64,000 nt of DNA, from NCBI GenBank assembly GCA_964470965.1, contig CAYYIS010000008.1, forward strand, positions 30,731 through 94,730. The letters run 5' to 3'. The notes beneath the pieces are model-generated. The model had not been told where the DNA came from. It did not search any database and saw only the letters and a program-made list of their open reading frames with translations. This document shows positions 8,456-46,174 of this stretch, one piece after another. Source of the stretch: an uncultured Gemmatimonadota bacterium. Lineage in GTDB: Bacteria; JAAXHH01; JABIQT01. The position numbers were made by a program, and so were the translations under genes. Numbering within the stretch: the first letter of the stretch is position 1; each line of letters starts with the position of its first letter.

Positions 8456-8467
8456 GCCGGAGGCAGG

Positions 8468-8836
8468 ATGCGTATTAAGTTATATGAGAAACCCACTTGA
8501 AGCAAATGCAGGGAGGCGGTCAGCCTCCTCGACGACAGGGGGCTCTCTTACGACAGAATTGATTACTACACCGCCCCTCTCACCCGGGATGTACTGGTAC
8601 GATTACTCACTGAAATGGATGCCCGTCCCAGAGACATCATGCGGACCAGTGAAACAACCTATAAAGAGTTGAATTTGGCAGATTCGGACCTGGCCGACGA
8701 TGCGTTAATCGATCTGATGATTCAACATCCTGACTTACTTCAGCGTCCTATTTTGGAGATCGATGACCAGGCGTTGCTGGGCAGACCGACGGATCGGATC
8801 GAGGCGTTTCTGGATGCCGCTATCGCCATGGGGTGA
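8468..8836 (+). CDS. Spx/ArsC-family thiol oxidoreductase with an in-frame UGA (putative selenocysteine) at 8498-8500, forming a UxxC redox motif
   Basis: Continuous reading ATG(8468) MRIKLYEKPT-TGA-SKCREAVSLLDDRGLSYDRIDYYTAPLTRDVLVRLLTEMDARPRDIMRTSETTYKELNLADSDLADDALIDLMIQHPDLLQRPILEIDDQALLGRP... aligns end to end with Spx/ArsC (Spx: LYTSPSCTSCRKARAWLEE...). The TGA sits exactly at the first Cys of the CxxC motif. A hairpin follows 10 nt downstream. The six-frame track split this gene into 8615..8836 only. Confidence 0.7.
8511..8530 (+). promoter_or_regulatory. Candidate bacterial SECIS hairpin (7-bp stem GGGAGGC/GCCUCCU, apical loop GGUCA) 10 nt downstream of the in-frame UGA
   Basis: Sequence gggaggc-ggtca-gcctcct at 8511-8529. 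The spacing and the G/U-containing apical loop resemble fdhF-type bSECIS elements. Confidence 0.5.
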
Positions 8837-18965: not shown

Positions 18966-19272
18966 GAGGCCGAAACTCCTTAAGACAGGTTCTCCACGAA
19001 AGGCTTAAAATTCCGTTTGGCAGCCTTCCATTCCAGCAGCTTGTTGCAGATATAGACGATCACTGTAAATGAATTCACCGCCGTGTTCAGATGGAACAGA
19101 TTGGTACCGACTCCGGCTTCGGTGATCCTGAGTAATTCATGATTGGTGACAGAATCCCATATATCTTCATGGCGGTTAGACCACTGTGTGTCCATCCGGA
19201 AATCCCCGCAAACACATTACCCCCAAGCCCCCCACTGCTGCGGGCACAGGTAAATGCGCATACTTCTTCGAA

Positions 19273-19715
19273 TCAGGTGTCACGATTCACACCGTCGCAA
19301 TACGAGTTCTCCTGCCCTGCCAACCTGTGTATCGCTGGCCCCGCCTCCGGTGCGGTTAACTTGGTGTCGAGATCCTTAATGCGACCATCTTTTAAACCGT
19401 AGATCCACCCGTGCATGGAAAGCAAACATTGATATGTTTGAACCTTGAGGACTTCCACGGCGTGCTGCAACACTGACAGACAATTAAAATCCGTATGCAA
19501 CATCCGATTTGCTATGTTGCGGTGCACAAATACCTCTTCCGGTTTCAACTCCAAGATCTGATTTGGCGGAACCCGGCTGTCGGCACAATCAACCCAGAAA
19601 TATTCCGGTGTCCGCTGTTGGGCAATTTTTTAAACATATCCGGTGTTTCATCTATGACACCTTCCGCCTACTTTTCGTTTTTTTCCAAGAGTTGATTCAA
19701 AGATTTGAGTGACAT
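19273..19715 (-). pseudogene. Beta-class carbonic anhydrase pseudogene: nonsense codon, 1-bp deletion in a poly-A run, and a ~85-codon internal deletion removing the Zn ligands
   Basis: Minus-strand reading gives [33 protein letters not shown], then a frame shift, then [61 protein letters not shown] joined directly to [16 protein letters not shown]. The E. coli Can/CynT block containing HYGCGG is missing. Its ATG overlaps the upstream gene's stop (TAATG). Confidence 0.7.
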
Positions 19716-22380: not shown

Positions 22381-23178
22381 CTATCCTTTCCCGTCGGGCA
22401 GGGAACGCCGGTAAAGCCATAGGAATCCAGCCAACACGACGCAGATCATTGCCAGGACCCATCCAAACCTGCGACGCGTGCTGACTTCCTCTCTGACCAA
22501 GAGGAGTTCCTTGTCCACGTTTTTCAGACTGTCCCTGAATGAATCTGCCATCGGAATGAGAGTATCGAACAAAAACACGTGTGAAGCCTGTTCCCTGTAT
22601 GTGTTTCTGATTCGGTCTAGCTTGCCGAGTATCGGATCTACCGGCACCCCGGTAGGCAGTAATTCCAATGCAGCCATCCTCGTCTCCGCAATCGGGTCCA
22701 GGATGCCATTGACCGCCGTAACGAATTGATCGAGCGTCGCATTTTCATGGCAGTCTTCACAATTATCCGGAATCGAAATTTCCGCTACCTGGGGCTGGCG
22801 GATGATATGGCTGCCATGACAATCGATACAACTGGGCCAAAGGCCTCCCGCCAATCCGTGGGGACTCGCAAGGTAATTAGTCATCTGGATCTGATGACAT
22901 GTACCGCACACTTGGTGGACTTGATCGGGCTGCAGTTCCCCCTTGAATCCGGCTTCCAAGTCATGGGAAATCTCCTTTACCATGGAAGCGGCGGAACCGC
23001 CATGGCACTCCTGACACGCTATGCCGGCCATCTGATGAACGCTTCCCCGCCATTCCGGGACAGGAGCGGCCATCGCCTCCTGTTCCAGGGCGGCATGGCA
23101 GAGCACACAGGCATTTGAAGATTGGGCCGCTACTGTCGCAGGTAGCAGAAACACTAGGAAGAGCATCAGATTAAGCAT
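22381..23178 (-). CDS. Pentahaem c-type cytochrome, membrane-anchored
   Basis: 265 aa with five CxxCH motifs (CVLCH, CQECH, CGTCH, CIDCH, CEDCH). N-terminal signal and a C-terminal TM helix. Immediately downstream of the cytochrome b gene. Confidence 0.8.
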   Translation of the reverse strand: MLNLMLFLVFLLPATVAAQSSNACVLCHAALEQEAMAAPVPEWRGSVHQMAGIACQECHGGSAASMVKEISHDLEAGFKGELQPDQVHQVCGTCHQIQMTNYLASPHGLAGGLWPSCIDCHGSHIIRQPQVAEISIPDNCEDCHENATLDQFVTAVNGILDPIAETRMAALELLPTGVPVDPILGKLDRIRNTYREQASHVFLFDTLIPMADSFRDSLKNVDKELLLVREEVSTRRRFGWVLAMICVVLAGFLWLYRRSLPDGKG

Positions 23179-23183
23179 AGCTT

Positions 23184-24338
23184 TTAAGGCTCCACTATGA
23201 TCTGGGGCAATCCGTATACGTCGAAATGGTACTTCGTGCCTAATATGATCTGATCCGTGTCCGAAATATGCCCCAGGACACCCAGCGCGATCGTGAAGCC
23301 AATGAAGAGTATACCAGCTACAATGGCCACCGGACGCTTACCCGGATGTCTTTCAGGCGAGCGATCCCAAAACGGCAACAAAAGCAGTGCAAGGATTACG
23401 ATGCCAGTGCCTAAAAGCCCTATCAGTTCCGGGAAAAACTTCAACACCTGGTACAGCGGTAGAAAATACCACTCCGGTTTCACACCCAGTGGCGTATTGA
23501 AGGGATCCGCCTTGTCCTCCAGCGGCACTGGATAATACACGACCATGAGAATCATGGTTGCGATTATTAGCAACACCATAATCGATTCTTTGAGGACATG
23601 CTGTGGAAAAAACGGCTTGCCCCCTCTCCGGGTAAGTTCCTCGGAGTTGGGTTCGGGGGTGTCGGTGCTGTCCAGCGTCGAGATGCCCAGATACCGAATC
23701 AGGAACAGGTGAACGCCCACGAGCAACATAAACACCCAGGGAAGAACGATCACATGCACCGTGAAGAAGCGGGTCAATGTCGATTCCGATACGATCTCCC
23801 CGCCGCGCAGGATCAGGAGGGTGTGCTCACCAACGATGGGCACTGCGCCGGCAATTTCGGTACCAACCACCGTGGCCCAGTAGGAGACCTGGTCCCAGGG
23901 CAGCAGGTAGCCTGTGAATCCAAACATCATGGTGACACCCAGCAGAGCGAACCCGAATAACCAGGTAACCTCTCTCGGTTTTTTATATCCTCCGTAAAAA
24001 TAAACGCGTACCACGTGCAACAGCAGGAAAGCGATCATGAAATTAGCGCCGTAGACATGGGACTGGCGCATCAACCATCCGAAAGGGACTTTCTCCATGA
24101 TAAACTTAATGCTGTCGTAGGCCGTGCTTGCGGATGCTTCGTAGTATATCATCAATAGCAGGCCTGATATGGCCTGGGTAATGAAAAATGCGAACGTGAT
24201 CGTTCCAAAGGAAAACAACCAGTTCACATGCTTCGGAACGGGTTTGGTTAGGTGTTTACGGGCGAAGTCGATGGCAGCGGAGAGTTCCATCCGCTCCTCG
24301 ATCCATTCGTAAAGCCATCGTATTAGACGTCCCGCCAT
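23184..24338 (-). CDS. Cytochrome b subunit of a Rieske/cyt b (bc-type) complex
   Basis: 384 aa. Haem-ligand His pairs in TM helices ('VRVYFYGG', 'HLFLIRY'), 'PEWYFLP' and 'DKADPFNTP' motifs typical of cytochrome b/b6 with fused subunit IV. Confidence 0.85.
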   Translation of the reverse strand: MAGRLIRWLYEWIEERMELSAAIDFARKHLTKPVPKHVNWLFSFGTITFAFFITQAISGLLLMIYYEASASTAYDSIKFIMEKVPFGWLMRQSHVYGANFMIAFLLLHVVRVYFYGGYKKPREVTWLFGFALLGVTMMFGFTGYLLPWDQVSYWATVVGTEIAGAVPIVGEHTLLILRGGEIVSESTLTRFFTVHVIVLPWVFMLLVGVHLFLIRYLGISTLDSTDTPEPNSEELTRRGGKPFFPQHVLKESIMVLLIIATMILMVVYYPVPLEDKADPFNTPLGVKPEWYFLPLYQVLKFFPELIGLLGTGIVILALLLLPFWDRSPERHPGKRPVAIVAGILFIGFTIALGVLGHISDTDQIILGTKYHFDVYGLPQIIVEP

Positions 24339-24342
24339 AAGT

Positions 24343-24813
24343 TTATGCTCCGAGCACGACTTTATCGCCGATTACACTGACACCGAGCCGCACCAGCGGG
24401 ACCGGTGGCGGCCCACCTGTAACCTGTCCCTTTATATCGAAGCGGCCACCGTGACAAGGACAGATAAATTCCTGGTTTTTCTGCACCCATTTCACAGCAC
24501 ACCCCAGATGTGAACATGTCGCCATGAACGCGACAAATCCGTCCGGTCCGTTCACTACCAGCGCCGGTCGACCCCGATAGGTCACAACCTTGGCGGCGCC
24601 GGTCGGCAGTTCGGCCAGATCGATCTCGACCTTGCTGACACCTTTCGCTTCCGGCGGCGGCTCAATGTACCTTATCACAGGATATAGGAAACTCATCAGG
24701 CCCAGGCTGCTTATCAGCCCCATACACCTGGCCAGGAAACGGCGGCGCACTTCATATTTCGTAGGAGAACCTGTGGACGGCATAACGTCGTCCGGCGAAT
24801 TTAGCTGACCCAT
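24343..24813 (-). CDS. Rieske [2Fe-2S] iron-sulfur protein with Tat signal
   Basis: 156 aa. Rieske boxes 'CSHLGCAV' and 'CPCHGGRF'. Twin-arginine motif 'RRRFLARC' near the N-terminus. Confidence 0.85.
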   Translation of the reverse strand: MGQLNSPDDVMPSTGSPTKYEVRRRFLARCMGLISSLGLMSFLYPVIRYIEPPPEAKGVSKVEIDLAELPTGAAKVVTYRGRPALVVNGPDGFVAFMATCSHLGCAVKWVQKNQEFICPCHGGRFDIKGQVTGGPPPVPLVRLGVSVIGDKVVLGA

Positions 24814-42707: not shown

Positions 42708-44654
42708 TTAATACATGTGCACCCGGTGGCCGTTGCCAGGGAACCATATTATATCTACAATATAAAGTAAAAAAATACCCACCGTGTAGCCGGCTATCAT
42801 CCCGACGACAAAGGGTTGTGCCTTTCTATACTGTGTGACGCCGCCGATGCGAAGGAGCAGAACTTTGGCCAGCCAAGCGATAAAGATGGAGAATGCCATA
42901 GTCGGCATGCCCTCTGTAGCGGCCACGGCGTATCCGATCGGATGTAGCGGCCATCCGGGAAACCTGTGATGAATGAAAATCAAAACCCCTCCCACAACAC
43001 TGCCTATGGCCATGAAAAAAAACTCGACACCGGAAAACACTCTTTTATTGTTGAGCCAGGTGACCAGGGTGTTGTAGGATCCGCGGCTACCACCTGGAAA
43101 AGGAGGATCGGTGAATTGCTGCGCGCCGCCGGTAAAGTACCCCAGATACAGCGTGTACAGAACGGTTGTGATCACACCTATTGCCAGCGTTACCGTGATC
43201 ACCCCGAATACGCCGCGCCCTATCCCGCCCATCTGATCTCCGACTTTGCTGACATGCGCCATAGAGCACATTCCGAGGGTCCGCCAATTATGGGAATAGG
43301 CGTTAGAGAGGGCAAGTTGGGTAAGATTCATCGGCGAGATGCTTCCGGATCCGATGGTTGAAACCGTAAAGGCATGCGCATTGTAGGGCAGATCCACGAA
43401 TATCAAACCTGTTTCCGCCACGATACGTGTGATCCCGATGAACATAAGCAGCAATGAACCCATAAGGAAAGCGGCGATTCCCAAAGACATACCGGATGTC
43501 TGCAACCAGGCAAATATAAAAAGCAGACCGAAGAACAGGCAGAATAGGGCGGTCCGGTAACTCAGAAATTCCTTTGAATCATCCACATCCGGTGCCAGAC
43601 CTACGGCTTTTCTCCAGACAAGTGTTAAATGGCGCCGGGCCATCCACAGCGTGAACAGTACGAACACAATAAATCCACCCATATGCTGGGAAGTGGCAAC
43701 CCACGGCGCCCGGGGGACCCCTACCCGTACCATGACACCGGTTTGGAATGTCTTGATAAGGAAAAACAACCAGGTACTGAGCAGCACATTTGTGTGGGTG
43801 AAGAATGCGACACCGGCGGTCAGAAAATTGAACGTGATAGGGACCTCCGGAAACGAGCGCGCCGGTAACAGGTTGTTCTTATACAGTGCGAGGATAGTAA
43901 TTTCGGGTAAAACGTTAAAAAAGCTAAGCATCTGCCAGAAGAGTACTCCAAGGGCGGTTCCGAATCCGATCCAGAACAACCGGTTTCCCGTGATGGCGGG
44001 TAAAAGGCTTTCTTCACGGTCTACCTTTATCATCGCCAGAGGAATCTGCGCCAGTGGAAATACCAACCGTTCGTGTTCGATCCACTGTTTCCGCAGGATG
44101 ACGATCAGGGATGCGCCCACTAGAAATATGGCGAGAAAAAAAAGGCTCCACCAGAACAGGGGGGTAACCCAGAATTGCCAAAGCATCGACTCGCCATCGG
44201 GTAGCCCTTCGTAAAACCAGGCCACAGAGCTGTAGTTAGACACGATGAGCCAGTCCGGTAGGTACTGGAAAAACGTCTCCACCCAGCGGTTTTCAGGTGA
44301 CGCGAAGTAAAGAGGGCCGCTGATGACACCAAGCCAGTATGAACTGAACGCCCACCCCGGAATAGAGGATGCAGTGAAGACCAGAAAAAAAATGATTATA
44401 AGTTCCTGGGGCGATAGGCCACGGCGGGGAGAAAGGAATTTGAATGCAGGATTCAACAAGAAAACCGTCAGCACGAACGGAAACAACGCCGCGATCGGTA
44501 TATGGCTGATCGTGATCAGGGAAGAATTGGCATTGTAGGAGGTGTGTATGGCCCAAATACACGAGAGAATCGAAAGGACAACTCCGATTCCGACAGCACG
44601 GATCGTTAGTCCGGAGGGCACCGTCCTGTGGGTATCAGAGCTGGCGTTGATCAT
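42708..44654 (-). CDS. Large polytopic membrane protein of unknown function (DUF-type, ~15 predicted TM helices)
   Basis: 648 aa from the ATG at 44654, which overlaps the upstream ALDH stop by 1 nt (ATGA coupling). Strongly hydrophobic helical segments throughout; no transporter family recognisable by eye. Confidence 0.55.
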   Translation of the reverse strand: MINASSDTHRTVPSGLTIRAVGIGVVLSILSCIWAIHTSYNANSSLITISHIPIAALFPFVLTVFLLNPAFKFLSPRRGLSPQELIIIFFLVFTASSIPGWAFSSYWLGVISGPLYFASPENRWVETFFQYLPDWLIVSNYSSVAWFYEGLPDGESMLWQFWVTPLFWWSLFFLAIFLVGASLIVILRKQWIEHERLVFPLAQIPLAMIKVDREESLLPAITGNRLFWIGFGTALGVLFWQMLSFFNVLPEITILALYKNNLLPARSFPEVPITFNFLTAGVAFFTHTNVLLSTWLFFLIKTFQTGVMVRVGVPRAPWVATSQHMGGFIVFVLFTLWMARRHLTLVWRKAVGLAPDVDDSKEFLSYRTALFCLFFGLLFIFAWLQTSGMSLGIAAFLMGSLLLMFIGITRIVAETGLIFVDLPYNAHAFTVSTIGSGSISPMNLTQLALSNAYSHNWRTLGMCSMAHVSKVGDQMGGIGRGVFGVITVTLAIGVITTVLYTLYLGYFTGGAQQFTDPPFPGGSRGSYNTLVTWLNNKRVFSGVEFFFMAIGSVVGGVLIFIHHRFPGWPLHPIGYAVAATEGMPTMAFSIFIAWLAKVLLLRIGGVTQYRKAQPFVVGMIAGYTVGIFLLYIVDIIWFPGNGHRVHMY

Positions 44655-46174
44655 TAATCTCCGAACGAGATTCCCTGTGCCAGGGGAAGGTCCGTCGACC
44701 AGTTGATCGTATTCGTCTGTCGGCGCATATAACTTTTCCACGCATCAGATCCGGATTCACGGCCACCGCCGGTCTCCTTCTCACCACCGAACGCACCGCC
44801 GATTTCAGCACCGGAGGTGCCGATATTAACGTTGGCGATACCACAATCGGAACCGGCAGAACCGAGAAAGCGTTCCGCCTGGCGGATGCTGTCAGTGAAT
44901 ATGGCGCTTGAAAGCCCCTGTGGGACGCCGTTGTGAATCTCCACGGCGTCTTCGAGTGCGTCGTATTCCATCAGATACAGAATCGGGGCGAACGTCTCAT
45001 CCTTTACAATATCTGTCTGACCGGGCATCTTGATGATCGTGGGCTCAACGAAGTTCGGCCCGACATCGGCCTTGGCATTCCCACCGGAAAGCACCTCGCC
45101 ACCCTGGGCCTTCGCCTGTTCGATGGCCTTCATCATATCCTCGACCGCACCACCGGTAACCAATGGCCCCATAAGCGTGGCATCGTCGAGCGGGTCTCCG
45201 ATCGGAACCTGTTCGTAGGCGTTGACCAGCCGATCCGTGAGTGTCGGCATGATACTTTTATGGCCGATAATACGGCGTGTAGAAGTACATCTCTGACCCG
45301 CCGTACCTACCGCACCGAAAACAATCCCACGGGTCGCCAATTCCAGGTCCGCTTTTTCAGTGACGATTATAGCGTTGTTACCGCCCAGCTCCAGTATGGT
45401 ACTTCCAAAGCGACCGGCAACAGCGGCTGATACTTTTCTGCCGGTTTGGGTTGAGCCGGTGAAGGAGACTAGTGGTAACCGGGAGTCTTCCAGCATCATA
45501 CTGCCCACATCGCTGCCCCGGCCAATGGTCAGACCAAAGAGGCCATCCAGACCGTGGTCTCCCATGACCCGGTTGCAGAGATGCTGGACTGCGATGGCGG
45601 TCAGCGGCGTCTGACCGCTCGGCTTCCAAACCATAGTGTCGCCACAGACTGCGGCCAGAGCTGCGTTCCAGGACCACACGGCTACCGGAAAATTGAAGGC
45701 CGTGATGATACCTACCACACCGAGCGGATGCCACTGCTCGTACATGCGGTGCAGCGGACGCTCGCTGCCCATGGTCATGCCGTACAACTGCCGGGAGAGA
45801 CCGACGGAGTAGTCACAAATATCTATCATCTCCTGAACTTCTCCCATACCCTCCATCCGGATTTTGCCCATCTCAAGTGATACGAGTTCGCCCAATGGCT
45901 CTTTGTACTCCCGCAGGACATTGCCGAGGTCCCGGACTACCTCGCCGCGTTTGGGGGCCGGCGTCATTCGCCAAGTCTTGAAGCAACCGGCGGCTTTTTC
46001 GACAACCGCATTGTACACATCCGGCGTCGCCTGTCGCACCCCGGCGATCGGCTCACCGTTGGTTGGATTGTAGGAGGTTAAAATCGGCCCTTCGGTGTGG
46101 ATCCAGCCGTCGGGACCGTGGCAGGCCCCGTGATTAATCTCTTCTATATACAGTTTTTCGAGCAGTGCTTTCAT
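44654..46174 (-). CDS. Aldehyde dehydrogenase, ALDH7 (antiquitin / piperideine-6-carboxylate / aminoadipate-semialdehyde dehydrogenase)-like
   Basis: 506 aa. 'VSLEMGKI', 'VDICDYSVGLSR', 'GIITAFNFPVAVW', 'ELGGNNAIIV' and 'GTAGQRCTSTRR' align closely with ALDH7A1. Confidence 0.8.
   Translation of the reverse strand: MKALLEKLYIEEINHGACHGPDGWIHTEGPILTSYNPTNGEPIAGVRQATPDVYNAVVEKAAGCFKTWRMTPAPKRGEVVRDLGNVLREYKEPLGELVSLEMGKIRMEGMGEVQEMIDICDYSVGLSRQLYGMTMGSERPLHRMYEQWHPLGVVGIITAFNFPVAVWSWNAALAAVCGDTMVWKPSGQTPLTAIAVQHLCNRVMGDHGLDGLFGLTIGRGSDVGSMMLEDSRLPLVSFTGSTQTGRKVSAAVAGRFGSTILELGGNNAIIVTEKADLELATRGIVFGAVGTAGQRCTSTRRIIGHKSIMPTLTDRLVNAYEQVPIGDPLDDATLMGPLVTGGAVEDMMKAIEQAKAQGGEVLSGGNAKADVGPNFVEPTIIKMPGQTDIVKDETFAPILYLMEYDALEDAVEIHNGVPQGLSSAIFTDSIRQAERFLGSAGSDCGIANVNIGTSGAEIGGAFGGEKETGGGRESGSDAWKSYMRRQTNTINWSTDLPLAQGISFGD

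Follow-up and report, generated by a model that had tools for sequence, protein, structure and literature searches.

A probable ArsC-family selenoprotein gene with an in-frame TGA at the catalytic cysteine codon

Does a TGA that stands exactly where an enzyme should have its catalytic cysteine end the gene, or is it read as an amino acid, and if so, as which one? The question is raised by a locus at positions 8468-8836 of the forward strand of a 64,000-nucleotide stretch of contig CAYYIS010000008.1, from an uncultured bacterium assigned to the Gemmatimonadota; the whole stretch is called the window here. The locus is a single frame that runs from ATG 8468 to TGA 8834-8836, and its sole internal stop, read directly from the sequence, is the TGA at 8498-8500, codon 11. 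Judged by comparison with related sequences, the locus is very probably a genuine, mis-annotated gene of an ArsC-family selenoprotein, in which UGA codon 11 would specify selenocysteine (Sec) and the hairpin just behind it would be the selenocysteine insertion sequence (SECIS).

Conservation of the in-frame TGA and of the hairpin behind it

The complete coding sequence (8468-8836, forward strand, stop included) is predicted to encode an ArsC-family selenoprotein of 122 residues, an assignment based on the frame, the Pfam match, the homologues and the structures in the PDB. The translation reads MRIKLYEKPT-U-SKCREAVSLL...QRPIL...LGRPTDRIEAFL. The TGA at 8498-8500 (+), read as Sec at residue 11, lies in the context T-U-S-K-C and is aligned with the catalytic Cys12 of R773 ArsC. 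The second residue of the U-x-x-C motif, Cys14, is a candidate resolving cysteine and is encoded by TGC at 8507-8509 (+). A Shine-Dalgarno-like GGAGG, also read from the sequence (8459-8463, +), is situated 4 nt 5' of the start codon (ATG 8468-8470), and a counterpart, AGGAGG or AGGA, is found upstream of the start in the relatives L014 and L015.

The gene is not reported in this form by automated annotation. The mechanical list of open reading frames (ORFs) holds the shortened ORF 8615-8836 (+, 73 aa) in its place, and the public gene calls for the same DNA are 73 aa and 65 aa long. The 65-aa 'ArsC' fragment was called on the same metagenome contig (ENA SUTE22-1_SAMN10231917 scaffold_96, 179,777 bp). 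Three relatives, P0025, P0019 and P0052, have been shortened by annotation in the same manner. A first-pass annotation of the window had described a full-length gene of the ArsC/Spx fold with Sec as the first residue of a CxxC motif and a bacterial SECIS (bSECIS) downstream, and had expected the gene to be shortened by annotation, as the public calls confirm. Its positions for the start, the internal TGA, the hairpin and the final TGA were each correct when checked against the sequence, and its central claim is supported by the comparative evidence.

A homologue search returned 160 proteins at E<=0.001. Among the best 120 of these 160, most are Cys forms of 114-126 aa that read T-C-S-K-C, and full-length homologues are 54-61% identical to the window protein. 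The CxxC motif is present in 104 of the 106 Cys-form proteins examined, and the column of the TGA is never Trp or Gly in homologues that use the standard code. A motif scan found TGT or TGC at the Sec column in nine Nitrospira-type genome loci. Alignment to Cys-containing homologues, the check proposed in the first-pass annotation, thus places Cys at the TGA column in these Cys forms, in the Nitrospira-type loci and in the ArsC proteins of the PDB. Several short protein hits are shortened calls whose DNA has TGA at the same codon. The same-codon TGA is present in L011-13 (90% identical, from three other samples), L014 (61%) and L015 (56%).

Metagenomes were scanned with the pattern GARAARCCNACNTGAWSNAARTGYMG, which covered only E-K-P-T-TGA-S/T-K-C-R and from which the hairpin region was excluded. 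At least 120 stretches were matched, mainly in soil and sediment metagenomes. Among the matches listed, all but one of 120 are ArsC-like frames that continue through the TGA, and 110 (108 of them unique) are complete genes, each with a start codon 9-14 codons upstream of the TGA. The complete TGA-bearing genes, at least 110 in number, come from many samples and three clades and have neither frameshifts nor extra stops. Upstream residues that lie outside the search pattern are conserved (Tyr-5 in 79/79, Ile-8 in 73/79), with synonymously varied codons, and the N-terminal part is therefore translated. To judge from these sequences, the TGA is a conserved feature and not a lesion. The first-pass annotation had held that the same TGA in relatives with frameshifts and without a conserved hairpin would speak against it; in the relatives the hairpin has been kept and the frames are intact. 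Two copies of the Sec form appear to be degraded. In L098 the conserved Tyr that precedes U is replaced by Cys and the frame stops 34 codons after the TGA; L114 is without the N-terminal strand and departs from the family sequence about 45 residues in. Both may be pseudogenes or assembly errors.

The candidate bSECIS hairpin of the window (8511-8529, +) begins 10 nt after the TGA. Its arms, GGGAGGC (8511-8517) and GCCUCCU (8523-8529), fold as a 7-bp stem around the loop GGUCA (8518-8522), with a local energy of -13.4 kcal/mol. The published bSECIS model calls for a loop of 3-9 nt, a stem of 4-16 bp, a distance of 16-37 nt from the UGA to the loop, G in the first two loop positions (usually G[G/U]) and a minimum free energy (MFE) of <= -7.5 kcal/mol (PMC13188914). 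The hairpin had been proposed as a bSECIS on the first pass, and when it was held against these rules it agreed with them on all four counts, having a 5-nt loop that starts with GGU, a 7-bp stem, a spacing of 17 nt and the energy of -13.4 kcal/mol.

The Sec forms belong to three clades, each of which has its own hairpin, formed by different codons. The stem of clade A (the window type, CREAVSLL) begins 13 nt from the U of the UGA. Clade B (CREVKRVLTE) has the stem GGUCAAG/CUUGACC at +17, and clade C (CREMDKLLRESG) has the stem GCUGCUC/GAGYGGC at +26 with the loop CGUGA or CGGGA. Because MFE statistics for the whole region were weak in comparison with synonymous recoding (z of -0.6 for clade A, and -1.5 to -1.6 for clades B and C), per-codon synonymous entropy and pair counts were used in their place.

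Synonymous choice in clade C collapses at the stem. Leu+10 is CTC in 79/79 sequences (0 bits), Leu+9 is CTG in 76/79 (0.23 bits) and Glu+12 is GAG in 77/77, and at +27, +32 and +35 the Leu codons vary as much as the pooled background (about 2.1 bits). Clade B loses its synonymous variation in a similar manner over codons +5 to +9. In the stem of clade B 99.4% of the cells are paired, and two base pairs show changes in both partners, with four changes from A-U to G-C and one from G-C to A-U. None of 500 shuffles (0/500) reached the observed number of paired cells, the number of double-change cells or the covariation score, and slid controls were 13-57% paired. In clade A, for which five sequences are available, the stem register is kept in all five and 94% of the cells are paired, the variation consisting of loop changes or of replacements of G-C by G-U.

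The Cys forms serve as controls for the hairpin. The local hairpin has -9.3 to -13.4 kcal/mol in five clade A Sec forms and -7.9 and -4.3 kcal/mol in the two nearest Cys forms. In a metagenome-assembled genome (MAG) of the Pyrinomonadaceae, a Cys orthologue with 95% protein identity to a Sec form and the same synteny has lost the GU of the loop and one stem pair. These controls, from four independent loci, point in the expected direction and are too few for statistics. When 83 non-redundant Sec forms were placed with 107 Cys forms in a neighbour-joining tree, clade A and clade B each formed a monophyletic group, and the members of clade C were interspersed with Cys forms. To explain the tree, at least 16 Sec/Cys changes are needed, one of which is an artefact of the leaf P0030 inside clade A, a code 4 call of the Sec form L015 and not a true Cys form. 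This result fits the dynamic exchange of Sec and Cys described for bacteria (PMC1794560). With three SECIS placements and orthologous Sec and Cys forms in one small family, these genes may provide a compact natural system for the origin, movement and decay of SECIS elements. The combination of a TGA at the catalytic Cys column, a protein conserved on both sides of it and a hairpin conserved in homologues is, as far as sequence comparison can tell, far beyond chance.

Family membership and possible chemistry

The family searches were run with Cys substituted for the internal stop. The window protein matches Pfam ArsC (PF03960) at E=3.2e-21 over residues 6-114, with 75.9 bits against a gathering threshold of 24 and with positions 1-79 of the 79-position profile covered; a Glutaredoxin Pfam also matches its N-terminus. 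The best NCBIfam model is TIGR00014, arsenate reductase (glutaredoxin), with 91.5 bits. The Spx/MgsR model TIGR01617 gives 71.7 bits, below its cutoff of 75.05, and the specific Spx model NF002459 gives 56.7 bits, below its cutoff of 123. A search of the PDB placed glutaredoxin-type ArsC first, with E=2e-21 to 1e-14 (3f0i at 2e-21; 2mu0; 3rdw; R773 1jzw/1i9d at 5e-16), followed by Spx at 3e-14 to 6e-11 and then YffB at 1e-9.

A gap-free alignment to 1jzw pairs U11 with Cys12 and three arginines of the window protein with the catalytic triad of R773 ArsC. Arg59 (CGG, 8642-8644, +) corresponds to Arg60, Arg93 (CGT, 8744-8746, +), in a Q-R-P motif, to Arg94, and Arg106 (AGA, 8783-8785, +), in a G-R-P motif, to Arg107. 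Cys14 and all three arginines are invariant across the subfamily alignment. In E. coli ArsC the Arg60/Arg94/Arg107 triad is reported to be essential, and YffB is reported to lack it (PMC3169414). By sequence, glutaredoxin-type ArsC is a closer relative of the window protein than Spx is. On the first pass the protein had been aligned residue by residue with Spx. The ArsC/Spx fold is borne out, and Spx as the nearest kin is not, since ArsC models and structures score higher and the triad is present; filing the protein as Spx was rejected on the same grounds.

Both the triad and the overall similarity speak for chemistry of the ArsC type, in which a selenolate would stand in for Cys12, and the following scheme may be proposed. 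The hairpin at 8511-8529 would bring SelB, loaded with guanosine triphosphate (GTP) and Sec-tRNA(Sec), to a ribosome that has halted at the UGA, by a mechanism that is established elsewhere and presumed to operate here. Sec11 would replace the nucleophilic Cys12 and would face the oxyanion-binding triad of Arg59, Arg93 and Arg106. Its selenolate would attack arsenate, or a similar oxyanion or disulfide substrate, after which Cys14, one helical turn on, would resolve the adduct as an intramolecular Sec11-Cys14 selenenylsulfide. A thioredoxin or glutaredoxin system would then reduce the selenenylsulfide. The Cys at +3 and the loss of His8 suggest this intramolecular resolution rather than resolution by glutathione. 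In this scheme the insertion of Sec, the substrate and the reductant are those predicted from sequence, and arsenate reduction by the window protein is a putative activity.

Several findings weigh against the function of an arsenate reductase. The TIGR00014 score of the window protein is below the cutoff of that model, 106.05 bits; the relatives L014 and L015 score 99.1 and 100.2 bits. The canonical catalytic motif of ArsC is HX3CX3R (PMC3169414). The window protein reads E7-x3-U11-x2-C14-R15, in which the Arg of the motif is kept and Glu replaces the canonical His; the canonical motif also carries Ser where the window protein has Cys14. No ars genes were found in the window, in about 10 kb of flanking DNA on each side or in about 120 related loci. 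In the window and its flanks, sel and ars genes were looked for with NCBIfam on ten large ORFs and with precomputed Pfam matches for all called genes. In the Acidobacteria-like clade the neighbours are a glutamate dehydrogenase gene (53 loci) and radA (54 loci). The locus L149 (4001-4354) and about 54 group-C loci, from Pyrinomonadaceae-like Acidobacteria, have the synteny TonB-Gdh-ArsC(Sec or Cys)-RadA-DHFR-ThyA. Such housekeeping synteny without ars genes calls into question the name 'arsenate reductase (glutaredoxin)' that is routinely given to these proteins.

The most serious rival to the proposed chemistry accepts the selenoprotein and disputes the arsenate reductase. On this view the protein would act as a redox switch of the Spx/MgsR type or as a general thiol-selenol oxidoreductase, and its UxxC would cycle between the selenol/thiol and the selenenylsulfide and so sense or relay oxidative stress. 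UxxC resembles the CxxC of Spx and not the CxxS of ArsC, the score of 71.7 for TIGR01617 stands against a cutoff of 75, and the match of the Glutaredoxin Pfam to the N-terminus and the Glu at the position of His8 are of the same tendency. The gene context, with no ars operon and with the gdh-arsC-radA housekeeping synteny of the Acidobacteria-like loci, gives arsenic resistance no support, and for this reason a general redox or sensor role is retained as a minority view. Against the redox switch stands the oxyanion-binding triad, which is missing in YffB and invariant in this subfamily. All ArsC models and structures outscore the Spx ones, and the specific Spx model falls far below its own cutoff (56.7 against 123). 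Spx is known from Firmicutes, and the host, by its RecA, is nearest to a Latescibacteria MAG. On balance the redox switch is the less likely of the two, and an ArsC-type enzyme is preferred.

Stop codon, standard amino acid or selenocysteine

The observations that count against reading the TGA as Sec concern chiefly the hairpin and the Sec machinery. The folding energy of the window hairpin is about that of its dinucleotide shuffles (z=0.2), and a SECIS-like hairpin of the same quality arises in approximately 3-9% of synonymous recodings of the same peptide. The R-E-A-x-x-L-L peptide itself fixes some of the stem, and a Cys form with the same residues keeps a version of -7.9 kcal/mol. The hairpin alone is not beyond chance, and the case therefore rests on comparison with relatives. 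Among the five clade A sequences there are zero compensatory double changes, and the synonymous deficit at their hairpin is modest (23/53 versus 322/553, p ~0.04, from non-independent pairs). A search of Rfam over the window gave no family at the gathering thresholds, and close to the site no SECIS family was matched even at E values as high as 10. Neither selA, selB, selD nor tRNA-Sec was found in the window and its flanks, an absence that says little since only about 84 kb of one genome was covered, and no tRNA-Sec was found in 60 related loci.

A second hairpin was considered at the same site. It has 8 bp, lies at 8522-8544 (+), AGCCUCCU-CGACGAC-AGGGGGCU, and shares the 3' arm of the SECIS stem, so that it could compete with the SECIS fold in the window mRNA. 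It was rejected as a candidate and is probably incidental, since it is unconserved in the four other clade A sequences.

The statistically ordinary hairpin and the Sec machinery unseen in the accessible DNA would also be expected of a TGA that is a genuine stop. The locus would then be a pseudogene, or only the downstream ORF 8615-8836 (or its 65-aa version) would be made, which is the C-terminal fragment that automated calls give; a real decayed gene, a beta-carbonic-anhydrase remnant, is present elsewhere in the window. This explanation is very unlikely. At least 110 complete genes of three clades share the TGA at this codon, with protein constraint on both flanks, and the synonymous collapse and covariation after it would have no explanation. 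The 73-aa fragment would be without the first beta-strand, the active-site motif and helix 1. Its ATG, at 8615, is without a Shine-Dalgarno sequence, whereas ATG 8468 has GGAGG.

The carbonic anhydrase remnant lies at 18966-19715 (-). A TAG stands in place of a conserved Trp close to the N-terminus, there is a frameshift, and about 85 residues, among them the His/Cys zinc ligands, have been lost through an internal deletion. A contig from a second sample, L147, is broken in this region too, and only a 71-aa ORF is called there.

The least credible explanation of all is that the TGA stands for a standard amino acid, through code 4 or 25 (Trp or Gly) or through near-cognate read-through that inserts Trp or Cys. 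In its favour, the Sec machinery was not observed and the public protein P0030 (L015 207-569) has Trp at the Sec position. Against it, 29 of the 63 long ORFs of the window end in TGA, and table 11 leaves the long ORFs unbroken. In 104/106 standard-code homologues the column holds Cys, and in none Trp or Gly; the TGA is followed by a conserved, covarying hairpin that obeys the bSECIS rules; and the source contig of P0030 is 599 bp long. TGA is the commonest true stop in the window, and the ArsC gene itself and its upstream neighbour are among the ORFs that end with it. The Trp of P0030 evidently arose when a gene caller translated the TGA under genetic code 4, and errors of this type hide selenoproteins in large protein collections. 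A systematic scan of the window for other frames that read through TGA found only the ArsC gene to be protein-like. A suspected second TGA-interrupted gene, that of an aldehyde dehydrogenase at 44654-46174 (-), proved to be intact.

Insertion of Sec at codon 11 is thus the preferred reading of the TGA. At least 110 similar metagenome genes have probably been mis-called in the same way as the window gene, and one relative has been mistranslated with Trp.

Related selenoproteins, the host and neighbouring genes

Selenoproteins named arsenate reductases have been reported several times. A Sec 'arsenate reductase' with UxxS was found in the Sargasso Sea (14 sequences; PMC1088965), and the Global Ocean Sampling (GOS) data contained 'Arsenate reductase 1' with UxxS (77 sequences) and 'Arsenate reductase 2' with UxxC (42 sequences) (PMC2398784). 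A review table of 2026 lists only these UxxS and UxxC forms, the UxxS form under TIGR00014 (PMC13188914). An 'ArsC-like' selenoprotein has also been reported in the genome of Desulfotalea psychrophila.

Arsenate reductase 1 belongs to the same family as the window protein and has Sec in the same column; its member JCVI_READ_387526 is 28% identical over the full length (E=4e-19). It reads ...YHNPRUGKSREAVKLL..., where the window protein reads ...YEKPTUSKCREAVSLL.... A SECIS-like hairpin just after the UGA and the arginines of the Q-R-P and G-R-P motifs are common to both. The window protein differs in having U-x-x-C (U-S-K-C) instead of U-x-x-S, as do all the clades found here, and in having Glu for the His of HX3CX3R. 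It belongs to a separate clade, in which the Cys forms have CxxC (104/106) and which is found mainly in soil and sediment metagenomes, whereas Arsenate reductase 1 comes from the surface ocean.

Arsenate reductase 2, and with it the 'ArsC family (seleno)protein' model NF041106, is also ArsC-related and has UxxC with Sec as the first residue. It reads ...GGUTTCTKASKF... and is a distant family: BLASTP gave no alignment of the window protein to JCVI_READ_17177. Filing the window protein under NF041106 was rejected, the score being 16.2 bits against a cutoff of 85 and the published member showing no BLAST similarity. Since type 1 is homologous (E=4e-19) and type 2/NF041106 is not, the window gene is best described as a type-1-like Sec-ArsC with UxxC. 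This subtype was not found in the GOS list or in the 2026 review table (PMC13188914); BSepDB and the NCBI selenoprotein annotations were not queried.

Comparison with the proteins of known structure leads to a similar placement. The window protein shares with R773/E. coli ArsC (1i9d, 1jzw) and with the YfgD-like proteins (3f0i, 3rdw) the fold, the length, the position of the nucleophile, the triad and the Arg at +4. It differs from R773 ArsC in having Sec for Cys12, Cys for Ser15 and Glu for His8, and its gene lies outside an ars operon. With Spx/MgsR (1z3e, 3l78) it shares the ArsC/Spx fold and a redox C/U-x-x-C at the same place; it differs from them in its lower similarity, in keeping the ArsC triad and in having a host that is not a Firmicute.

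The minimal upper stem-loop of the SECIS of E. coli fdhF lies 11 nt after the UGA, and its apical loop contains GGUC. The window hairpin likewise lies inside the coding region, 10 nt after the UGA, and its loop begins with GGUC. Unlike the fdhF element, it has no evident bulged U and its stem sequence is unrelated; in the sister clades the stem is at +17 or +26.

The window gene adds a new member, or arguably a sub-variant, to a kind of selenoprotein known since 2005, and it does not overturn current understanding. It extends the known Sec-ArsC family to a UxxC subtype, which may use an intramolecular selenenylsulfide rather than glutathione. A bolder and tentative interpretation is that these proteins are a third, uncatalogued form of ArsC-fold selenoprotein, E-x3-U-x2-C-R, with a resolving Cys, without the catalytic His, encoded in housekeeping contexts, equipped with three SECIS designs and not an arsenic-resistance enzyme. 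If this is true, the family would consist of oxidoreductases or redox relays of the CxxC type that depend on selenium, have switched repeatedly between Sec and Cys and are abundant in soil Acidobacteria-like and other uncultured lineages.

The nearest named relative of the host RecA is that of a Candidatus Latescibacteria MAG, with 75% identity, and the ArsC gene marks this uncultured lineage as a likely user of selenium. The region of the window at 12000-42000, in which no link to the ArsC gene was seen, is rich in genes for GFO/IDH/MocA oxidoreductases, xylose-isomerase-like proteins (AP_endonuc_2), PhyH/TauD dioxygenases, DUF6807 proteins and alpha-L-fucosidase. A Rieske/cytochrome b pair followed by a multihaem protein is encoded at about 22700-24813. 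The neighbourhood suggests an organism of a Latescibacteria-like lineage that lives as an aerobe or microaerophile and scavenges sugars or inositol.

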